From: an uncultured virus (IMG/VR IMGVR_UViG_2636415949_000001)
Lineage: Duplodnaviria > Heunggongvirae > Uroviricota > Caudoviricetes
Length of the DNA: 64,000 nucleotides
IMG/VR virus record: IMGVR_UViG_2636415949_000001
Reading direction: 5' to 3' (one strand)
The notes under the pieces are model-generated. The model had not been told where the DNA came from and did no database searches. It saw nothing but the letters and a program-made list of their open reading frames with translations. The position numbers and the translations under genes are program-made. Within the stretch, counting starts at the first letter, position 1, and each line of letters opens with the position of its first letter. This document shows positions 9,061-36,003 of this stretch, in pieces.

Positions 9061-10056
9061 TTGCCGATATTAACTTTAAATGGACGTTTTGTGGACGTCG
9101 ACATTCGGTATGAGCTCGAACAATTCGACTGGACCCGGCCGACATGGGGCGATGAACGCCTGCTGGCCGCCAGTCCATTCAGATACGATCGGACTCCGAG
9201 CTTTTACGTATATCTCGAAGACACAGCGTCGGCAAAAGCCGGCTATTGGGGCGACTCGGGCGCCTATGACGAAGAATTTGCGCGGGGCGGGTTCGTTAAA
9301 CTGCTCGCTTTCCTGCGCGGCGAAACCGAAGACGATGCAATCGATTACTTATTGGAAACGTATGCACCGGCGGCTGAAGGTGGACGTATGGCGCTGCGGC
9401 TCCCGAAATTAAAAGCCGTCACGAAGCCGGAGCCTTTAGCGGAATCGGTCCTCGCGGACACGGCGCCAGGGGCTAACGCTTACCTGACGGGCCGGGGCAT
9501 CGCACCCGCGGTACAAGAAGAGGCCGGCGTATCACTTGCCGGTAACGCAGTCGCGATCCCTTGGCGGCTTCCTAACGGCCGGCTGGCAAACGTTAAGTAT
9601 AGGGCAACGAAGGGGAAGGCGTTCTGGTACGTAAAAGGCGGCTTGCCTATCCGGTATTTAGTTTACGGAATGGATCTCGTATATGCGCAGCGGATTAAAA
9701 GCGCGGTGATATGCGAGGCGGAAATCGATGCTATGGCGTGGCGGTCTGCGGGCGTACCGGCGATCGGAACCGGAGGCAGCACATTTAATTTACAGAAGGC
9801 GGACATAATTGCGCAGTCACCTATCGAATATTTAACGGTAGTTACAGATAACGACAAAGCTGGCGAAAAGTTACGGCGGGAGATTGAGCGTTATTTGAGC
9901 GGAAAGGTGCGGCTTGCGCACGGTTATATTACGGAGGTGAAAGACGCTGATGAACTACTTATAAAGCGCGGTACAGAAGCGTTGCGAGACGTGTATGATC
10001 GTGCGGAGATCGTAAGAAATACTTTACGTTTAGGTTCGGGAATTCCCGTACTTTAG
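9061..10056 (+). CDS. DNA primase (TOPRIM)
   Basis: NVKYR, ICEAEIDAM, TDNDKAG, KDADE motifs. Confidence 0.88.
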   Translation: MPILTLNGRFVDVDIRYELEQFDWTRPTWGDERLLAASPFRYDRTPSFYVYLEDTASAKAGYWGDSGAYDEEFARGGFVKLLAFLRGETEDDAIDYLLETYAPAAEGGRMALRLPKLKAVTKPEPLAESVLADTAPGANAYLTGRGIAPAVQEEAGVSLAGNAVAIPWRLPNGRLANVKYRATKGKAFWYVKGGLPIRYLVYGMDLVYAQRIKSAVICEAEIDAMAWRSAGVPAIGTGGSTFNLQKADIIAQSPIEYLTVVTDNDKAGEKLRREIERYLSGKVRLAHGYITEVKDADELLIKRGTEALRDVYDRAEIVRNTLRLGSGIPVL

Positions 10057-10072
10057 GTCGGCGGAGGTTGTA

Positions 10073-10318
10073 TTAACCCTCCGTGTTGCTGTCGGATACC
10101 TCAATCCAATCGTACAGATCTTCGGACGCGCAGCCGAGCATCATTGCGATATTGTAGGTTCGTTCGATGCTCGGAAGATTCCGAAGGCTGACGTAATCGG
10201 ACATTTGCGTTTTTGATACTCCGACCATTGCTGCGAGTTGACTGAGACTGATTCCGCGTTTCTTGCATAGTTCGGGTATCCGACATTTGCCGACCTTAAA
10301 CGTAATAAACACCTCCAT
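10073..10318 (-). CDS. XRE-family HTH regulator
   Basis: SLSQLAAMVGVSKTQMSDY HTH. Confidence 0.85.
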   Translation of the reverse strand: MEVFITFKVGKCRIPELCKKRGISLSQLAAMVGVSKTQMSDYVSLRNLPSIERTYNIAMMLGCASEDLYDWIEVSDSNTEG

Positions 10319-10371
10319 TCGTAAAGGTGTCCGTAATATTTTATCTTAATTAAGTATTAATTTCCATTAGA

Positions 10372-10581
10372 TCATTCTTTAACAATTTTAATGACTTTTT
10401 CAACTGGGACATCAAGGAATAAACAAATTTTTTCTAAAGTGCCTATGTACATTTTTAAATTCGCTTGCATGTGGTTTTCTTTAATACTGGTTTGGGTGCG
10501 TGAGCTTATGACCTGTCTGAGATCGCTCAGGTTCATTTCTTTTTCTTCTAAGGTTTTGAACAATGGGGAAAAATCGACCAT
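10372..10581 (-). CDS. Cro/CI-type HTH regulator (candidate lysogeny repressor)
   Basis: MVDFSPLFKTL...TLEKICLFLDVPVEKVI pattern; AGGAGG RBS; divergent from the aimR-like gene. Confidence 0.8.
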   Translation of the reverse strand: MVDFSPLFKTLEEKEMNLSDLRQVISSRTQTSIKENHMQANLKMYIGTLEKICLFLDVPVEKVIKIVKE

Positions 10582-10602
10582 TTTAAAAATCCTCCTAAAT
10601 AA

Positions 10603-10634
10603 ATGTTTACACGTCTAAACATTTTTATTATACT
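10603..10634 (+). promoter_or_regulatory. SigA-type promoter of the aimR-like gene overlapped by a palindromic operator
   Basis: TTTACA(10606)-17 bp-TATACT(10629); inverted repeat ATGTTTA-N6-TAAACAT at 10603-10622. Confidence 0.7.
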
Positions 10635-10694
10635 TCAATTATACTTAACGAATAGATAAAAGTCATTCATTAATTCAAATAGGGGTGAAATTAC

Positions 10695-11921
10695 ATGGAT
10701 TCCGTTCGGGATTTTTTGTTTAATAGTATAGAAGACAGGGACGACATTACAGACGATGATCTTGCTCGACATTTGAAGGTAGGGGGAAAACAGGTTAGAA
10801 ACCTACGGAACGGTGATCGCGAATTGACTTTTAGAAGTTTGCTTATTCTTACACAATTAGTTGATGGCAACAATTACCCTGAACACATCTCTAATTGGTA
10901 CGATTTACTAGATAGCGACGACTGTATCCGTAATTTATTTGAATACGCGGCTATTACAAGAAATATAGAACTGCTGGATAGACATATAAAAAAATATCAA
11001 GATGAAAAGAAATCCACTGTCGAGAAATACATCAAGGTTTACACATTCATCCGCGATTACATGAAAGGAAATATTAGCTTCTATGAGATCGATGATGAGA
11101 TCGCTAAGCTCACGACACTTAAAAACCCCAAACTTAAGCTTCTAATTGAAATATACGAGTGTATTTCTTTACTACAAAGACGAGAATTTTCATATGTACT
11201 CGCAAAGGCTTCTGAAATTGAAAAACGTATCCGAAAGATGAGCGATAAAACTCAATTATTCGAAAAGGAATGTTACTTGTACAGAGTTTCAGAGGTATTA
11301 GCATTTACACATTTATTTATGAATAATTTAGATGAAGCAAGGCACTATTCACACATCTTACTAAATGCTAAAATTAACAAAAGAGTTGATTCTGACGCTC
11401 TTTATATATTAGGAATGACCAATTTACTGCACGATGAAGAACTATGCCTCCACTACTTAAAGCGTAGTTTATCCGCAGCTGAAGAAACGGGGATAGCTAG
11501 ATTAGAGGGGTATGCATACTACAATTACAATTTCGCGAAAATTCTGATGTCCCGCAGCATCGATGACAACGCGCCTAGACCACTTCTTGCTGTTCAAAAG
11601 TTTCGTAATAATGAAATTAGTCAGGATAAAGCTCAAGAAGTAATTTTAGAAATGGGAGATCCTGATCTGACTACATATTTCGAATCGTGTTGCGGAAAAG
11701 AAAAAAGACACAAAAAGTTTTGCGAGCTGGTGTCCACTTCTAATCTTTTCTTCGCAGTTATTATTGTAAGGGATATGATTCAGTCCGGGGAGAACAGCGA
11801 CTTTGTCAAGACCCTTACAGAAAACCTAAAAACTGTAGAAAAGGGAGATGTTGTTTTTGAAGAAGATTTTATTTGTTGCTTTAATGTGTGTAGCTTTGGT
11901 GTCAGGAGTGCTTGCGCTTAA
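10695..11921 (+). CDS. aimR: AimR-like (RRNPP) arbitrium receptor: N-terminal HTH plus TPR-like helical domain
   Basis: 408 aa; HTH DDLARHLKVGGKQVRNLRNG; LFEYAAI motif; followed by an overlapping signal-peptide micro-ORF. Confidence 0.8.
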   Translation: MDSVRDFLFNSIEDRDDITDDDLARHLKVGGKQVRNLRNGDRELTFRSLLILTQLVDGNNYPEHISNWYDLLDSDDCIRNLFEYAAITRNIELLDRHIKKYQDEKKSTVEKYIKVYTFIRDYMKGNISFYEIDDEIAKLTTLKNPKLKLLIEIYECISLLQRREFSYVLAKASEIEKRIRKMSDKTQLFEKECYLYRVSEVLAFTHLFMNNLDEARHYSHILLNAKINKRVDSDALYILGMTNLLHDEELCLHYLKRSLSAAEETGIARLEGYAYYNYNFAKILMSRSIDDNAPRPLLAVQKFRNNEISQDKAQEVILEMGDPDLTTYFESCCGKEKRHKKFCELVSTSNLFFAVIIVRDMIQSGENSDFVKTLTENLKTVEKGDVVFEEDFICCFNVCSFGVRSACA

Positions 11922-11970
11922 TGCTAATGAGGGCAGCAAGGAGGTAGCAATAAACGCAATAGGGGGATAA
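11857..11970 (+). CDS. aimP: AimP-like pro-peptide MKKILFVALMCVALVSGVLALNANEGSKEVAINAIGG (predicted mature INAIGG)
   Basis: AAGGGAG RBS, TTG start, MKK plus hydrophobic signal sequence, C-terminal EVA|INAIGG; overlaps aimR 3' end. Confidence 0.85.
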   Translation: MKKILFVALMCVALVSGVLALNANEGSKEVAINAIGG

Positions 11971-11978
11971 TTATTTCT

Positions 11979-12007
11979 AAGGGCCTGTATCAAACAGGCC
12001 TCTTTTT
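11979..12007 (+). terminator. Intrinsic terminator after aimP
   Basis: GGCCTGT-ATCAA-ACAGGCC hairpin followed by TCTTTTT. Confidence 0.8.
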
Positions 12008-12128: not shown

Positions 12129-12157
12129 GTCCATTCTGATATGTGCATTCGCAGTTA
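12129..12157 (+). promoter_or_regulatory. Phage promoter motif A, copy 2 (upstream of the sigma gene)
   Basis: GTCCATT...TTCGCAGTTA with the same 19-nt offset. Confidence 0.8.
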
Positions 12158-12178
12158 ATATTGAAAGGGGAAATCACA

Positions 12179-12814
12179 TTGCAAAATAATGAAAACTTAA
12201 TAATCTTGATTGACGATTTTCGAGAAAAAGGAGATCAAAACTCGTTCAATGAGGTTTTTGAATACTTCCGGCCGCTAGTTCGGAATCTCGCTAGAAAATA
12301 TGGTCGAGGATGTCCGATCTTGTTCGATGAAATTGTAAGCGAGCTGAACGAGAAGATATGGCGGATCGTTGAAAAGTTCGATAAGACTCGATCGAGAGAA
12401 GTAGTCGGTCATTTTAAGCTCCATCTTTCGCGGGCAGCAATCGATGTAACGCGGATGAAAAATGGGACTTATGCAAAGAAACGGGTACTGTTAGATGCTT
12501 CGGCGGAAGAGAATGCTGCAACATTCGAATCTGATTCCGATGATCTAATGGAGGATCACGTAATTGCGATGATTGATGGAGAAATAAAAACGGACCAAGA
12601 TAAGCTGCAACTTATCAAGGCCCTAACGGAAAATTCCTGCTCACTAACGACTGCAATCGTTAAGGAGCATCTTGCAAGCGAACGACCTACATACGCTTCG
12701 ATCGGCAGTAAGGTAGGCGTCCATTACAAAAAAGTAGAACGTGTAATCAAAGGGTTAGCGAAAAATTTCGACGCTTCTCACCACGGCGAACTTAACGCTT
12801 TTCTATCTGTGTAA
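12179..12814 (+). CDS. Phage sigma-70-family factor
   Basis: Region 2-like GDQNSFNEVFEYFRPLVRNLARKY...KIWRIVEKFD; C-terminal HTH TYASIGSKVGVHYKKVER; AAAGGGG RBS before TTG. Confidence 0.75.
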   Translation: MQNNENLIILIDDFREKGDQNSFNEVFEYFRPLVRNLARKYGRGCPILFDEIVSELNEKIWRIVEKFDKTRSREVVGHFKLHLSRAAIDVTRMKNGTYAKKRVLLDASAEENAATFESDSDDLMEDHVIAMIDGEIKTDQDKLQLIKALTENSCSLTTAIVKEHLASERPTYASIGSKVGVHYKKVERVIKGLAKNFDASHHGELNAFLSV

Positions 12815-14766: not shown

Positions 14767-15201
14767 ATGGCGCATAAAGCAGAAGATACCGGCAAGTATT
14801 CGGAGCTGATCGCTCGTGCTGCGCTGCTGGCTAGCGGCTGGCAGGCGGTCAGTACGTCCGAAACGGAAGAGGCATTCGATATTAGCGCAAAGTGTCCGTT
14901 GAGTGGCGAGTGGAAAACGTTTCAGGTGAAGACGATTTATGATCGAAAGAAGCGCGGCAGCCTCATCGTTCAGGCGCGGAAAAGCGATCGGACACCGTAT
15001 AAGCTCGATGAAGTCGATTACTTTATCGGTGTGCTTATCGGACGCGGTCCGGTGCCTACCGTGTGGATGTTCGAGAACCGCGAGCTCACCGAGTATTGGG
15101 GGCCGCAGTCGAAGGATGGCAAACGGTGGGTTCGGATGGATTTGAATTTCCGGCGCGAAGACGTAGATCTTACGAAAATTAACGAATCGGAGGCGGTATG
15201 A
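14767..15201 (+). CDS. PD-(D/E)XK endonuclease, free-standing
   Basis: GKYSELIA, FDISA, TFQVKT, Y..DEVDYFIGV motifs. Confidence 0.65.
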   Translation: MAHKAEDTGKYSELIARAALLASGWQAVSTSETEEAFDISAKCPLSGEWKTFQVKTIYDRKKRGSLIVQARKSDRTPYKLDEVDYFIGVLIGRGPVPTVWMFENRELTEYWGPQSKDGKRWVRMDLNFRREDVDLTKINESEAV

Positions 15202-16335: not shown

Positions 16336-16483
16336 AGCGCTATAAGTTTAACGTTGATTGGTGGCTGTTGATGGCGGGGTGTGTTCTCATCGCAATATTC
16401 ACAAGCATCGTAATTATTTCCGTATTAGACAACGTATTCGGTGTATAAAAACGCAATTACTTCGTGAGGAAGGAGGACGACGG

Positions 16484-18259
16484 ATGGAAGGCTTACGGTT
16501 AAACTTGAACGCGCTTAAGCCGGCGGCACCGAAATCAGACGCAGTAGAGGCGACGGCCAAGCGGAAGGTAGAGGCGAAGAAGACGGAAACGCTTGACGAG
16601 GCTTTCGCGAGATTATCAGAGTCGAAGTTTACCGATAAGGAAAGACGCCAGTTTGACGCAGCCTACCAGGCGTTTAGAGCCGGAAACTTTGTACGCACAG
16701 GAACCGGCAAGCTAACGAAAAAGGAAGTTTGCGAGACAGGGCGAACGCATCTTGCCGAAACGGAAGCCGCAATCAGACGCCAACGTATCGAAGAAACGCT
16801 TGCGAATAAGCCGGATAACTACTATATCTTAACGGATGACTCAGAACTTCCTGGATTCGTTGAACGTATACGCGAGGAAGTACGAAGACAGCGGGCGGAA
16901 TGGCCTGATCGGTTTGAAAAAATCGGGGTAGATTCGTTAACTGCGTGTGACTTCGAGGGAACTGGCTTAGATTCCTACATCGACCTATCGATCGGCTTTT
17001 CGATATGGCTTCCGTTGTTGGAAGAAGGCTATTACTTGCCTTACGGTCATGTCGGCGGCTTTGACGTTCCTGCTGCTCATAAAGATACCGATCCACAGCT
17101 TACGCGTTCAAAAGTAATCGCTGCTATTTCGCCGTATCTCTCGACTCCTCAGCACGGTAAGACGTTTCATATGGGCGCGGCTCGGTACGATTTACATGTC
17201 GCTCAAACTGACGGTTATACGATTCGAGGATGCGTTTGGGATACGTTAGATGCAATGCATTTAATGAACGAGCACGAGCCTTCGTACGGTCTTAAGCCTT
17301 TGACGCAAAAGTACGGTAAGTATTTCGGCGTAACAGGAACGGTGTTTACTTTCGAGGACTTATTCGGAAACAGGTCGCCGGCTCCGTTTAATACAGAGTT
17401 GGTCGGTATATACGCGATCAATGACGTTAAGTATGGTTGGGGATTATGCGAGTTTCAGTTCGAAATGATGCAGAAGTACGGACGGCTCTTTGATTGCTAC
17501 GCGCTAATTGACTCGAAATTACCGGAGACTGACGTTTTCATGGAACGCTGCGGATTCTGCATTGACCTCGATCAACTCAGGGCGCTAGAAGCCGAATATG
17601 AGCCGAAGGTTGAGGAAGCGACGCGCCGAGTGTTCGAGACTTACGGTATTGACGACGAATTTGTACGCAAGATGGACCGTACCATAAACGCAACTAAGAT
17701 TCAGAAATGGATTGTGGCTCAGCAAAAACGAATACGAACAGCAGACGACCGAATTACGAAGAAATTAACGAAAGTAAACGAGATGAAAGCGGCAGGGAAA
17801 ACGCACACAAAATCGTATCAGAACGAACTTGGCTTGCTCGCAAAATACCGAAAGATGCGCGCCGAGCTTGCTGACGCCACCGTGGAAAACGCACCCCAGG
17901 ATATCAAGGAATTCGTAATTACTAACGGGAATCACATCGCGTACTTAATTTACGATCATCTCGGCATTAAAGACCAGACGTCGAAGATCGAACGCGGTAA
18001 GAAGCGGTCAACCAAGTCGGATGTACTCGATATCTACTTCGCAGAAGAACCATCGCTTGAGCCGTTAGCTACAGTTGCGGAATATACGAAGCTGCTAACG
18101 ACTTATATTCGTCCGATACTCGGCTCACACGGCGTGGAATCCGTTATGGAGGTTGACGGACGGTTGCATACGAACTTTAAAGCGGGCGGAACCGTAACGG
18201 GACGTTATTCATCGAGTTCATATCGCGCAAGAAAACCGGAGGTGGCAACGTGGCTATAA
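16484..18259 (+). CDS. polA: Family A DNA polymerase, N-terminal part (3'-5' exonuclease plus thumb)
   Basis: ExoI DFEGTGL, RYDLH, WDTL, YAINDV; ends at GTVTGRYSSS; AAGGAGG RBS. Confidence 0.85.
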   Translation: MEGLRLNLNALKPAAPKSDAVEATAKRKVEAKKTETLDEAFARLSESKFTDKERRQFDAAYQAFRAGNFVRTGTGKLTKKEVCETGRTHLAETEAAIRRQRIEETLANKPDNYYILTDDSELPGFVERIREEVRRQRAEWPDRFEKIGVDSLTACDFEGTGLDSYIDLSIGFSIWLPLLEEGYYLPYGHVGGFDVPAAHKDTDPQLTRSKVIAAISPYLSTPQHGKTFHMGAARYDLHVAQTDGYTIRGCVWDTLDAMHLMNEHEPSYGLKPLTQKYGKYFGVTGTVFTFEDLFGNRSPAPFNTELVGIYAINDVKYGWGLCEFQFEMMQKYGRLFDCYALIDSKLPETDVFMERCGFCIDLDQLRALEAEYEPKVEEATRRVFETYGIDDEFVRKMDRTINATKIQKWIVAQQKRIRTADDRITKKLTKVNEMKAAGKTHTKSYQNELGLLAKYRKMRAELADATVENAPQDIKEFVITNGNHIAYLIYDHLGIKDQTSKIERGKKRSTKSDVLDIYFAEEPSLEPLATVAEYTKLLTTYIRPILGSHGVESVMEVDGRLHTNFKAGGTVTGRYSSSSYRARKPEVATWL

Positions 18260-19377
18260 CTGACGAAAATTACTTAGACGTAGTAAAGGCGCTTGTAGCG
18301 AGCGATGAATATACGAAGCGCGGCGTTAACCTTCAGAATATACCGGCGAGATCGAAGTCGGGTAAGCGCGTAAGGAATGCGTTTGTTCCGCGTGAGGGCT
18401 GGGTGTTTATCGGGTCCGACTTAGGGCAGATTGAGCCTCGGATTCAGGCGCACATAATGTACGAAAAGTACGGCGATGGTTCTATGCGTCAGATCTTTAT
18501 AGACGGCGTTGATCTTTACACGACGATGGCGCAGAAGGTATTCGGACTTGCGGAAGAATACTGCACGGATAAAGCTTACGATCCGACAGGCACGTTCCAG
18601 CCTCGCAGAATGATGAAGACCGGTGTGCTTGCGAAATCTTACGGGCAGACACCGCAGGCATTTGCGCGAAAAATGCACGTAAGTATCGAAGTGGCCGAGA
18701 TGTTTTTTAATAATTTTGACGAACAGTTTCCGTCGTTTACGCAGATGGTTACGGATATTCGCGAGGGAATGAAGCGGTACGGGTACGTTGAAACTCTTTA
18801 CGGACGGAAACGTAGATTTCCGGACTATAAGGAAGTCGCAGCAGCCGTAGCGAAGAACGAACAGCGCTTGATTAGGCTTTACACTGAGCGTAAGCAACTG
18901 CGTAATAAGAAATCGTTAACTCAACGCGATCAAGAACGCCTGGTTAAGCTTCAGTCGGAGATTGATACTCTCGCTGATAAGCGTGGCTTAGTCGGATATT
19001 GGGAACGCGCAGCTTTTAACGCGGTTATCCAGGGAACAGGCGCCGATATTCTGAAGATGAACGGAAATCGAATGGCGCGAATTTGTATGGAGCGTGGTTG
19101 GGAGTTTAACGCAAGTATTCACGATGAAATTAAAATCAGCGTACCAGAAGACGAATTAACGCCGGAAACAGTTGCGCTTATTAAGGACGTTATGACTAAT
19201 ACGGTAAGCTTGTCGGTTCCTCTCGTAACTGACACCGTTATAGAGCCCGCCTGGATGCTCGAAATGAAGCCGGAAGAATATTTTACAGGCGTTGTAAATC
19301 GCGAAGATTATTCGAAAGAAGAAGTTTACGAAAATCAAGTCGCACTTGTACGCAAGTATTGGAAGGGACGTGATTAA
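18250..19377 (+). CDS. polA: Family A DNA polymerase, C-terminal part (palm and fingers)
   Basis: NLQNIP; motif A DLGQIEPR; motif B R..MK......YG; NAVIQGTGAD; motif C IHDEI; own GGAGGTG RBS. Confidence 0.88.
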   Translation: MAITDENYLDVVKALVASDEYTKRGVNLQNIPARSKSGKRVRNAFVPREGWVFIGSDLGQIEPRIQAHIMYEKYGDGSMRQIFIDGVDLYTTMAQKVFGLAEEYCTDKAYDPTGTFQPRRMMKTGVLAKSYGQTPQAFARKMHVSIEVAEMFFNNFDEQFPSFTQMVTDIREGMKRYGYVETLYGRKRRFPDYKEVAAAVAKNEQRLIRLYTERKQLRNKKSLTQRDQERLVKLQSEIDTLADKRGLVGYWERAAFNAVIQGTGADILKMNGNRMARICMERGWEFNASIHDEIKISVPEDELTPETVALIKDVMTNTVSLSVPLVTDTVIEPAWMLEMKPEEYFTGVVNREDYSKEEVYENQVALVRKYWKGRD

Positions 19378-33976: not shown

Positions 33977-34063
33977 TACCCGCATTTTACCGCGTTAGTT
34001 GTCTATACGTTATGAGGGCGCCCGTTCAGCGCTCTTTTATTTTTGCGAAAAGGAGACGGTTTA

Positions 34064-34864
34064 ATGAAGAGATTACGAGTTATTAATACGGAGACAGGCG
34101 AAGACTGGTCGGAAATGTACACGCTGCGGCACCGCAACCAAGACGCAGCCTTTCGTCAGCAGCAAGAAAAAACAGCCGATCGGCGCGATTTCTCAAACGC
34201 CAATATGCCTAATATTCACGAAGTCTATGACGCTCTTACGACGGCACAGTGTGGCTATCTGATGCTGCTTCAGTGCTACGTCGACTACAACGGTGTTCTA
34301 ATAAAATCCAGCCGTAATAAAACGCCGATGACCACCGCGGACATGATGGACGTTTTGCAGCTCAGTAAAAAACGGATGACCTTTTACGACTTCCTTTCCG
34401 CCTGTACCGAGCACGACATCATCCGGGAAGAGAACGGCCGCTACAGTGTAAATGACCGCTACCACTTCAAAGGTAATTTCGGTAGTCAGCAAGTCGTTAA
34501 GCTATACAGCGCGAAGATCAAACGTGTGTACAGCGAAGTGAAGGCGACTGACATCGGTCTGATCTATCGTATGCTGCCGTTCATTCATTACGAAACAAAC
34601 GCTCTGTGCGCAAATCCTTTCGAAAAGAATCCGAAGCGCATACGTTGGTTTAACAAAAAAGAGCTTGCGGCGGCGATCGGTGTTACCTCGGATACGCTCG
34701 GCCGGCGCCTGAAGCAGATGAAATTCGACGGCGAATACGTTGTTGCGCGAATTAAAGTCGGAAGCGAGCCGGAGCGCTATACGTTTAATCCTAACGTATT
34801 CTATCGACAATCCAAGACGCCGGACAAAACGCTGATTGCGCTGTTTAACGTTAAGAAGGTATAA
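34064..34864 (+). CDS. DNA-binding protein with C-terminal wHTH (RepL-like)
   Basis: KELAAAIGVTSDTLGRRLKQM HTH and YTFNPNVFY; AAAGGAG RBS. Confidence 0.55.
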   Translation: MKRLRVINTETGEDWSEMYTLRHRNQDAAFRQQQEKTADRRDFSNANMPNIHEVYDALTTAQCGYLMLLQCYVDYNGVLIKSSRNKTPMTTADMMDVLQLSKKRMTFYDFLSACTEHDIIREENGRYSVNDRYHFKGNFGSQQVVKLYSAKIKRVYSEVKATDIGLIYRMLPFIHYETNALCANPFEKNPKRIRWFNKKELAAAIGVTSDTLGRRLKQMKFDGEYVVARIKVGSEPERYTFNPNVFYRQSKTPDKTLIALFNVKKV

Positions 34865-34865
34865 T
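34836..34865 (+). promoter_or_regulatory. Putative SigA promoter for the tri-peptide ORF
   Basis: TTGCGC(34836)-18 bp-TATAAT(34860). Confidence 0.55.
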
Positions 34866-34889
34866 TTTACTATACCGGAGGTGAGGCGA

Positions 34890-34973
34890 ATGGGAATGCC
34901 ACGAGGAGCTAATCCGTTAGAGAGTGCGATTAGAGGCGCAGGTCCAGCGGAAAGCGCATCACGCGGAGCATAA
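34890..34973 (+). CDS. 27-aa concatemer of arbitrium peptides MGMPRGANPLESAIRGAGPAESASRGA (no signal peptide)
   Basis: GGAGGTGA RBS at 34877-34884; direct translation; exact GMPRGA and SAIRGA, plus SASRGA; terminator follows. Confidence 0.9.
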   Translation: MGMPRGANPLESAIRGAGPAESASRGA

Positions 34974-34975
34974 AA

Positions 34976-35011
34976 CGAAAAAGGACGCCTTATGCGGGCG
35001 TCTTTTCTTCG
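34976..35011. terminator. Bidirectional intrinsic terminator
   Basis: AAAAGGACGCC-loop-GGCGTCTTTT between convergent genes. Confidence 0.8.
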
Positions 35012-35151
35012 TCATCTTCCGTTTGTAATTCAAGAACTTCGATCTGCGATTTTAAGATAGCTATGTCTCGGCTGTTTAGATTCGTAGGTAATTCAAAGCG
35101 CGCAATCTGCCCGTTTGTAAGCGCAATGCGAGCGTACTGTATATCGTCCAT
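34990..35151 (-). CDS. Hypothetical protein, 53 aa (MDDIQYARIAL...; not in ORF track)
   Basis: AAGGGG RBS on the minus strand. Confidence 0.55.
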   Translation of the reverse strand: MDDIQYARIALTNGQIARFELPTNLNSRDIAILKSQIEVLELQTEDDEEKTPA

Positions 35152-35190
35152 ACGTATATCCCCTTCGGTGTTTATGCCTTAAATATATCA

Positions 35191-36003
35191 TCAGCTCTTC
35201 CACGAATCAAACGAAGGTATCCGCAGCAGTCCTTTGCGCGTCTTAAATCGATGCTTCACGCGGCATTTTATCGGCTCTATATTCACGTATTTATCCGTTT
35301 CTCCTACGTCTTTCCGCTCCGAATGAAATCTCCGCCGTTCAGCGTGCGGCATAAACTCCATCAGTCCCGCATAAGCACCGTCTTCATACGCTAAAACAAG
35401 CGCATTATCCTCTTTCCGATAACCCGTAATCCAAACGTCCGTATACTCGTAATTAACGATCTTCAACCATCGATCTGACCGCTTATTTTCCGCGTAGGAC
35501 GAATTAGCGCGCTTCATAACGACTCCTTCAATGCCGGAGCTTTTCGCTAATTCGAAAACAGCGCGGCCATTACCTGTAACGCTATCGACAATCTTAACGT
35601 TTGGATGATCGAGGGCAAGGCCGCTTAATAATTCCTTCCGCTCATATAACGGTTTCGACGTAACCGATTCGCCGTCGAGACGCAATATATCAAACACGCA
35701 GAATACTATCGGATGATAGCTTTTTTGCGATTGAAACCGCTCCATCATAGCTTCGAAGTCTCCGGCGCCTGTCGGTCCGGGCACGATAAGCTCGCCGTCG
35801 AGTACGGTGCCGTCCGGAATCTGTATCGTGTGGAGTTCGGGGAATTTAGCGGTGACTTCGTTGTTGTGGCGCGTGTAGAGGCGTATGCGGCCGTCATTTT
35901 TGGATGCGAGCAGGCGGATACCATCGAATTTGATTTCGGTAATGTAATCGTCAGAGTCGAACGGGTCTTTTGCGGACTCTAATAGCATTGGCGAAATAAA
36001 CAA
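35191..36003 (-). CDS. ATP-dependent DNA ligase (LigB/LigD-type minimal)
   Basis: EIKFDGIR, VLDGEL, FDIL, EGVVMK, RSDRWLK. Confidence 0.92.
   Translation of the reverse strand: MFISPMLLESAKDPFDSDDYITEIKFDGIRLLASKNDGRIRLYTRHNNEVTAKFPELHTIQIPDGTVLDGELIVPGPTGAGDFEAMMERFQSQKSYHPIVFCVFDILRLDGESVTSKPLYERKELLSGLALDHPNVKIVDSVTGNGRAVFELAKSSGIEGVVMKRANSSYAENKRSDRWLKIVNYEYTDVWITGYRKEDNALVLAYEDGAYAGLMEFMPHAERRRFHSERKDVGETDKYVNIEPIKCRVKHRFKTRKGLLRIPSFDSWKS

Follow-up and report, generated by a model that had tools for sequence, protein, structure and literature searches.

The free hexapeptides GMPRGA and SAIRGA are established ligands of the arbitrium receptor AimR, and their binding lowers aimX expression (PMC6458997 and the crosstalk papers cited below). 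Such signals are made from AimP propeptides, which display an N-terminal Sec-type signal peptide, an adjoining upstream cognate aimR gene, and the mature xxxxG[G/A] peptide at their extreme C terminus. Here, we have analysed a micro-gene in a 64,000-nucleotide stretch of DNA from an uncultured virus (IMG/VR record IMGVR_UViG_2636415949_000001), hereafter the window, that encodes three of these signals in tandem (GMPRGA, SAIRGA, and SASRGA) without a signal peptide and without an adjacent receptor gene. This micro-gene is probably a forged-signal gene, both receptor-less and leaderless, that switches off the AimR receptors of rival phages.

The array has in common with canonical AimP the identical hexapeptides, a C-terminal module (SASRGA) that ends at the stop codon, and the presumed target, AimR. 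It differs from it in having two further, internal signals where AimP has none, in encoding several peptides per open reading frame (ORF), all foreign to the carrier, and in the residues preceding its modules, which are M, E, or Y instead of the ...VA| cut site of real AimP propeptides. Moreover, the true AimPs of the window and of 62 related loci all have a signal peptide, which the array lacks, and the upstream neighbor of the array is not aimR but a gene of the phrog_9501 family. Tandem Phr propeptides (Phr-3T, Phr-105) are similar in that one small precursor contains several units, of which the internal ones need cuts on both sides; WprA and Bpr, two extracellular proteases of B. subtilis, release these internal pheromones (PMC11343458). 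However, tandem Phr propeptides are secreted, are encoded beside their receptor, and contain units serving one cognate receptor, whereas the array has no export signal and its units correspond to different, non-self receptors. Lacking both signal peptide and adjacent receptor, the array therefore belongs to neither the AimP nor the tandem Phr family, even if its predicted receptors are those of AimP. Eukaryotic multi-copy precursors, such as that of yeast alpha-factor, resemble the array in consisting of tandem active peptides separated by short processing spacers, but they repeat the producer's own signal and use the secretory pathway.

The outcome that we predict has precedents. Non-cognate arbitrium peptides induce early lysogeny and lower the induction of the receiving phage while raising the fitness of the emitter, as reported in a preprint (10.1101/2025.10.13.681967), and crosstalk between clade-2 arbitrium systems is described in PMC13220667. 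The predicted effect of the array is the same, i.e. a foreign signal causing early lysogeny or blocked induction of a rival, from which the emitter gains. In those 2025-2026 studies, however, the emitter used its own ordinary, secreted, and cross-reacting AimP, whereas the window contains a separate receptor-less gene with exact copies of rivals' signals. The discussions of these two papers do not mention a dedicated forged-signal gene. No prior description of such an array gene was found in the literature searched, whose scope did not extend to bioRxiv supplements.

A leaderless micro-gene encodes three arbitrium signals in tandem

The micro-gene, which is read from an ATG at position 34890 to a TAA at 34971-34973 on the plus strand (Table 1), encodes the 27-amino acid product MGMPRGANPLESAIRGAGPAESASRGA. 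Its translation and coordinates confirm the original prediction, made from the letters alone, of a 27-codon ORF with three RGA-ended hexapeptides and spacers. The three modules are found at the C termini of known propeptides: the AimP of SPbeta ends with ...EVA|GMPRGA, that of phi3T with ...TVA|SAIRGA, and a third with ...SVA|SASRGA (PMC13220667, Cell 2026, supplement file 1). The predicted absence of a secretion signal and of an adjacent aimR holds as well. Indeed, the 27-amino acid product has no hydrophobic leader, as assessed by the no-hydrophobic-run filter of a short-ORF scan (see below), and no AimR domain was found in the neighboring phrog_9501 protein. When the entire window was searched in six frames for 21 arbitrium hexapeptides, the only matches were GMPRGA, SAIRGA, and SASRGA in the micro-ORF, and INAIGG in the carrier's true AimP. 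Contigs from two public runs, belonging to two studies, span the micro-ORF with zero differences inside 34890-34973, and because they agree, the micro-ORF is not an assembly artefact. There is no Rfam match in 34500-35300.

Three expression signals had been proposed, and all three sequences are present, i.e. a ribosome-binding site (RBS), a TATAAT hexamer, and a terminator directly downstream. The assignment of TATAAT as a promoter fared less well, since a consensus scan of the window found no -35 partner and called no full sigma-70-type promoter. A -10-like hexamer is nevertheless present at the same distance in four of four contexts in which the cassette occurs, and is preceded by an extended TGn motif in three of them. 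In these non-window contexts, the motif takes the form TGnTATAAT or TGnTATGAT (TGGTATAAT in loci L387, L388, L413, and L453; TGGTATGAT in L017; TGGTATGGT in L016). A conserved TTTTAC motif that was considered in the promoter search was not informative. Two raw RNA runs had zero reads on the stretch, an outcome that does not bear on expression. The terminator is common to the cassette and to convergent minus-strand genes, and the A-run 5' of its hairpin means that it can act in both directions.

Table 1. Micro-gene, flanking signals, upstream gene, and resident arbitrium system in the window
Feature	Position	Strand	Basis or remark
Micro-gene, array M-GMPRGA-NPLE-SAIRGA-GPAE-SASRGA-stop	34890..34973	+	Translation; 19 homologous versions; mostly synonymous codon change
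Module 1, GMPRGA, SPbeta AimP mature signal	34893..34910	+	Directly after initiator Met
Spacer NPLE	34911..34922	+	Leu and Glu invariant across 12 DNA versions
Module 2, SAIRGA, phi3T AimP mature signal	34923..34940	+	Exact string match
Spacer GPAE	34941..34952	+	Translation, module alignment
Module 3, SASRGA, documented clade-2 AimP signal	34953..34970	+	Free C terminus
RBS GGAGGTGA	34877..34884	+	5 nucleotides 5' of ATG; kept in all array-bearing loci
-10-like hexamer TATAAT, possible cassette promoter	34860..34865	+	Overlaps stop codon (34862-34864) of upstream 273-amino acid gene
Hairpin terminator GACGCC-TTATGCG-GGCGTC (34984-35002), T-run to 35009	34984..35009	.	Flanked by A-run and T-run
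Upstream conserved gene, phrog_9501, 273 amino acids from TTG, likely start ATG 34064	34043..34864	+	PHROG E value 5e-122
Carrier's own AimR receptor	10695..11921	+	Pfam PF22871, E value 5.4e-21; phrog_1728
Carrier's own AimP, 40 amino acids, signal peptide, end ...EVA|INAIGG	11848..11970	+	Translation

Array modules copy documented signals and are selected as peptides

The micro-gene is a member of a gene family and not a chance ORF. In total, 19 distinct array proteins with shuffled modules are found in the same slot of ~65-kb temperate Bacillus phages, with three units in the window and one to five in its relatives. These include M-GEIKPGA-NPLE-SIIRGA-GPAE-SASRGA, M-GMPRGA-NPLE-SAIRGA-SPSRGA, M-GMPRGA-SPLE-GIVRGA, M-GELNPGA-GPQLY-GMPRGA-SPLE-SIIRGA-GPAE-SASRGA, M-GFTVGA-KELPKPKY-GFPRGA, and M-IKAITKS-GELKPGG. 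Homologues thus conserve the hexapeptides while varying which of them are present, which favors the original prediction. Across the family, X-Pro usually comes next after internal modules. Two distant members of the cassette family, L016 (in genome G072) and L017 (in G064), have just one module, placed behind a prefix of 8 residues (MIKAITKS-GELKPGG); one of the two also has a C-terminal tail (…GELKPGG-SPSK).

Nine of the 16 module types match documented mature arbitrium signals exactly, as do three of three modules in the window array. GMPRGA, SAIRGA, SIIRGA, SASRGA, SPSRGA, GIVRGA, GFTVGA, and GFPRGA are "Proposed Active AimP" entries in supplement file 1 of PMC13220667, and ELNPGA is the C terminus of signal-peptide-bearing AimPs adjoining AimR in four retrieved loci. 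The targets that were first proposed were SPbeta-like phages only; sister arrays add second-class modules (ELNPGA, EIKPGA, and ELKPGG), which belong to the class used by the carrier family's own relatives.

To examine selection, 12 distinct DNA versions of RGA-type arrays were aligned module by module, which gave 33 codon columns. Codon-state changes were synonymous in at least 23 cases and non-synonymous in nine; with 27% of random single-base changes in the window ORF being synonymous, this corresponds to a binomial P of 1.5e-7, a value that overstates independence since the sequences are related. Several of the non-synonymous changes (A/I, I/S/V, A/P) turn one documented signal into another. 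The invariant residues of the NPLE spacer are written with different synonymous codons in these 12 versions (CTA, TTA, or TTG for Leu; GAA or GAG for Glu). The synonymous excess and the invariance of the spacer Leu and Glu therefore indicate that selection acts on the product as a peptide, spacers included. Purifying selection has maintained the RBS as well as the peptides. This selection at the peptide level, together with the insertion of the cassette between the stop codon of a conserved gene and its terminator, rules out the alternative that the ORF is a decayed aimP.

The exactness of the copies also bears on the possibility that the array, when unprocessed or partly processed, jams signaling by competing for maturation proteases or for the Opp importer, thereby lowering the rivals' signal and promoting lysis. 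Such an effect would be in keeping with conserved junctions that may be recognized by proteases, with a leaderless array that may stay unprocessed, and with the requirement of AimR for free peptide termini. It needs no exact signal identity, yet the majority of module types are exact and non-synonymous changes swap documented signals; in addition, a leaderless product would meet extracellular proteases or Opp only upon cell lysis. We consider jamming improbable, and retain forged signals that bind the rivals' receptors as the preferred explanation.

Arrays contain non-self signals and track the host group

The peptides of the window array had originally been proposed to be foreign to their carrier. 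We paired each array with the AimP adjoining the AimR of the same phage, which was possible for 15 phages (12 on the same contig or chromosome, three by genome). The carrier's own AimP was present in its own array in none of the 15, the own signals of these carriers being INAIGG, ANQLGG, ELRPGG, EIKVGG, or DPIPGG. In the window, the sole AimR, identified by its PF22871 domain, lies 23 kb from the micro-gene and is paired with a signal-peptide-bearing AimP ending with INAIGG, which confirms the unrelated resident system that had been described. The same AimP is found in L091, L092, and L097. One locus, L033, contains an array identical to that of the window downstream of a 99% identical gene, but its AimR is only 33% identical and is paired with ELRPGG. 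Array and arbitrium module therefore assort independently, and the comparison of L033 and L110 with the window shows that the arbitrium module has been swapped between otherwise close phages. The complete genome G001 has only two AimR genes, paired with ELRPGG and GFGRGA, and an array consisting of EIKPGA, SIIRGA, and SASRGA. Neither resident AimP is in the array, whose presumed targets are thus mostly receptors that the cell does not encode.

A scan of viral contigs for clade-2 AimR with two seed patterns gave 10 loci. One GFGRGA-type AimR-AimP pair is found ~35 kb downstream of a window-identical array on the same contig (L361, IMGVR_UViG_2923098224_000002 67736-69453), and a second is located elsewhere in the G001 chromosome (L084).

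These pairings leave little room for a self-directed role, in which array peptides would cross-activate the carrier's own AimR and stabilize its own lysogeny without secretion. Some arrays do begin with EIKPGA, EIRPGA, or ELKPGG, which belong to the general class of the family's own ELRPGG and EIKVGG, and in clade 2, similar peptides have been shown to cross-react (10.1101/2025.10.13.681967 and PMC13220667). The window array, however, has no such module, its carrier's INAIGG is unlike any RGA peptide, the carrier's peptide is consistently missing from its array, and the window-identical array in L033 coexists with a very different receptor. A self-directed role is thus very unlikely.

Among carrier records that are named, array content goes with the host group. 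The signals in arrays containing GMPRGA, SAIRGA, or SASRGA are listed for the Bacillus subtilis group (PMC13220667, supplement file 1). The array combining GFTVGA and GFPRGA is found in records whose titles name B. glycinifermentans GO-13 and B. paralicheniformis KJ-16. The listed sources of GFTVGA and GFPRGA are B. sonorensis and B. glycinifermentans, with GFPRGA occurring in GO-13 itself (PMC13220667, supplement); licheniformis-group records thus have arrays with signals of that group. The peptides might instead act on Bacillus physiology and not on rival phages, since SAIRGA, according to the abstract of a 2026 preprint (10.64898/2026.08.23.746533), changes how B. subtilis colonies develop and favors sporulation. 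That abstract deals with a single peptide, however, and the arrays gather many signals from two receptor clades and follow the local host group, which is a better fit to the diversity of phage receptors. We therefore give little credence to a host-directed role and favor rival phages as the targets of the forged signals.

The array family is accessory and almost never annotated

The distribution of the cassette was determined in several ways. Of 49 genomes searched in the genus, 13 carry the upstream gene, as detected with a 261-base query that covers its end and the cassette. Five of these 13 have a micro-ORF in the slot; in the others, the terminator directly follows the phrog_9501 stop codon. 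Among 51 IMG/VR loci encoding the upstream protein, 47 could be evaluated, and 19 of these 47 contain an array while 28 lack the cassette. We also used a flank-independent pattern, encoding only R-G-A-x-P-x-E-x-x-x-R-G-A, which returned 96 viral loci with arrays in 13, all on contigs of the window's phage type. Four of these 13 arrays follow a different upstream gene, with the junction GTGGTATAATTTTAC, an extended -10 motif, being retained. Finally, genome and metagenome collections were scanned with an RBS-based DNA pattern, which gave mostly chance matches: with 202 pattern matches in the loci retrieved, arrays were present in only four loci (L161, L202, L212, and L330). Another locus from that scan, L189, corresponds to rpsO and not to an array. 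A tblastn search with the 27-mer against 50,697 phage records had no match, probably owing to the shortness of the query and to low-complexity filtering, and is therefore uninformative as to absence.

On its 5' side, the slot is bounded by the stop codon of either phrog_9501 or the alternative upstream gene, and on its 3' side by the common terminator. The phrog_9501 gene is present in relatives with and without an array. As in morons, the cassette is either present or absent between conserved genes, and the terminator is kept in relatives lacking the array. The micro-gene is thus accessory in this family of temperate Bacillus siphophages, whose genomes are ~65 kb in size. Array ORFs are almost never annotated by gene callers: a protein database search with the 45-amino acid, TTG-started frame found only two proteins, both unnamed, among 5.8 billion protein clusters.

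That the ORF is debris, i.e. a recombination remnant of aimP 3' ends or a chance ORF, is hardly credible, for although it is very short, rarely annotated, absent from many relatives, and in some versions resembles an internal deletion (SA-SPSRGA in L042; GPVRGA in L035), its RBS, start codon, and reading frame are kept in all versions with an excess of synonymous changes, signal-peptide or aimR remnants were not seen, the cassette stands behind two different upstream genes, and the six-frame scan of the 64 kb found such peptides elsewhere only in a true AimP.

Proposed action of the array peptides as forged signals

In the original prediction, the product was termed a decoy. Although the observation behind it was confirmed, that interpretation was only partly supported, and the label is wrong, because what the rivals' receptors would bind in these peptides are genuine ligands. 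In brief, we infer that the array ORF is expressed as a short precursor without secretion signal, consisting of tandem foreign arbitrium peptides. The initiator Met would be removed, exposing the first module; methionine aminopeptidase, by its standard rule, removes Met when Gly is at position 2. Cleavage at the conserved junctions would then generate free hexapeptides. SPbeta AimR holds its peptide by both ends, namely by a free amine at the N terminus and a free carboxylate at the C terminus (PMC6458997), and the 27-mer must therefore be cut before it can bind. The RGA modules would engage the AimR of SPbeta-like phages, and the E-x-x-P-G-A/G modules the AimR of related siphophages. Binding would shut off the rivals' aimX, bias them toward lysogeny or keep them as prophages, and thus benefit the carrier and its host cell.

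Several points weigh against this interpretation. The 27-mer has no signal peptide, and there is no known route from it to free hexapeptides; the residues preceding array modules (M, E, Y, G, or A) do not constitute the canonical Ala cut site of propeptides. The window hexamer, as mentioned above, has no -35 partner. An exact documented cognate was not found among the peptides examined for seven of the 16 module types (EIKPGA, EIKLGA, EIRPGA, ELKPGG, GPVRGA, GPVRGV, and SIVRGA), each of which is one residue away from documented peptides. GFGRGA has the top string count among twelve peptide strings in supplement file 1 of PMC13220667, yet it is in zero arrays of the family. AimR was not matched in one of the array-bearing genomes (G033), which was scanned except for 4424 bases. 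The cassette's absence from more than half of the evaluable IMG/VR relatives makes it an accessory, dispensable gene, and the comparative counts are not phylogenetically independent.

Assuming this function, there is a little less than an even chance that the array acts inside the producing lysogen, against incoming phages. This route fits because there is no leader, the cassette is compact, a -10 or extended -10 motif is present in four of four contexts, and the first module comes directly after Met. A somewhat less likely possibility is release at lysis, followed by maturation by extracellular proteases and Opp-mediated import into neighboring cells, which fits because the array ends a lytic-type operon, the window has no -35, and junctions come after Glu, Tyr, or Ala. 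By analogy, Bacillus extracellular proteases might cut such junctions, the choice of enzyme being conjecture. We consider it unlikely that both routes, or some other route, are used.

SPbeta-like phages contain single-peptide mini-genes

We next performed the short-ORF scan mentioned above, which selects RBS-preceded, leaderless ORFs that end with xxxxG[A/G] or have at least two GA/GG pairs with RGA, PGG, PGA, VGG, VGA, or IGG. In the window, it matched only the array. In the 134-kb genome of SPBc2, there was one match, MVQTLH-SASRGA, a 12-codon, leaderless, and unannotated ORF between yosZ and sspC, at 129848-129886 of NC_001884.1; a PGG-stop pattern had zero matches in this genome. The same ORF is present in Goe11, and in SPbetaL1 it is accompanied by a second mini-gene, MPLVLY-GFGRGA. 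In phi3T and Goe12, a 17-codon ORF, MPVVLMDLEEEHKKRGE, is found in place of the second mini-gene and, judging from its sequence, looks like a frameshifted remnant of it. These ORFs are at 1049-1087 of L467 (the SPBc2 coordinates above) and from 246 of L468, from 246 and 317 of L469, from 639 of L470, and from 517 of L471. A related mini-gene is thus part of SPbeta in the laboratory strain background, where standard B. subtilis tools apply.

The own signals of SPbeta and Goe11 are GMPRGA and GIVRGA, respectively, according to PMC13220667. Both differ from SASRGA, so the peptides of the mini-genes are again non-self. Like the window array, the mini-genes are leaderless and accessory, with a strong RBS, a non-self clade-2 signal at the C terminus, and no adjoining receptor gene, and they are sometimes decayed (phi3T, Goe12). 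They share with arrays a Tyr before peptides starting with G (QLY|GMPRGA and PKY|GFPRGA in arrays). They differ from the window array by having a single peptide per ORF and a 6-residue prefix, and by belonging to a different phage family and genomic slot. A published description of leaderless mini-genes beside sspC was not found in the literature searched.

It is an even call whether Bacillus phages generally fight one another with leaderless forged-signal genes, a weapon not described so far, encoding single peptides in SPbeta-like phages and multi-peptide arrays in the siphophage family. Under this model, each phage would stock the rivals' signals that circulate in its host group, never its own, and would deploy them to force dormancy, either from within the lysogen or as a burst when the cell lyses, with arrays being reshuffled by recombination between repeated RGA-coding segments. 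If true, the resulting arms race would help explain the diversification of arbitrium receptor-peptide pairs and their swapping between near-identical phages. A gene dedicated to multiple signals would then mean that deception has evolved as a trait in its own right, with a genetic module devoted to it. It would also offer a natural handle on the forging and processing of signals, as well as a compact and programmable way to keep chosen prophages dormant.

Genomic setting of the micro-gene

The window is a prophage of a temperate siphophage; among named phages, 268TH007 and phi18-2 of B. subtilis are its closest relatives. The integrase occupies the left end. Next come genes for replication and nucleotide metabolism, methyltransferases, and sigma-like factors, then a short block on the minus strand, and finally the structural genes. 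The micro-gene is the final ORF of a long plus-strand block and begins 25 bases 3' of the phrog_9501 stop codon. The phrog_9501 protein has only a weak helix-turn-helix match in Pfam, and its homologues in 268TH007 and phi18-2 are labelled "DNA binding protein" or "AsnC family protein". A terminator-like hairpin (34014-34036) separates phrog_13088 from the phrog_9501 gene, so that the latter may be transcribed together with the array as a separate short unit, or else both may need read-through.

Directly 3' of the resident aimP, in the usual place of aimX-type effectors, there is a sigma-70 region-2-like gene (12143-12814; PF04542, E value 9e-8), which suggests a different output module for the arbitrium clade of the window. 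This arbitrium module lies in a dip in GC content, with 37% in window positions 10001-12000 compared with about 49%. The DNA polymerase is encoded by two adjacent, slightly overlapping ORFs (16358-18259 and 18250-19377) that match different DNA-polymerase PHROGs; gene splitting or a frameshift may account for this arrangement. The prophage also contains three paralogous PHROG 5018 genes (1149-1601, 1598-2047, and 14767-15201), two of which are in tandem.

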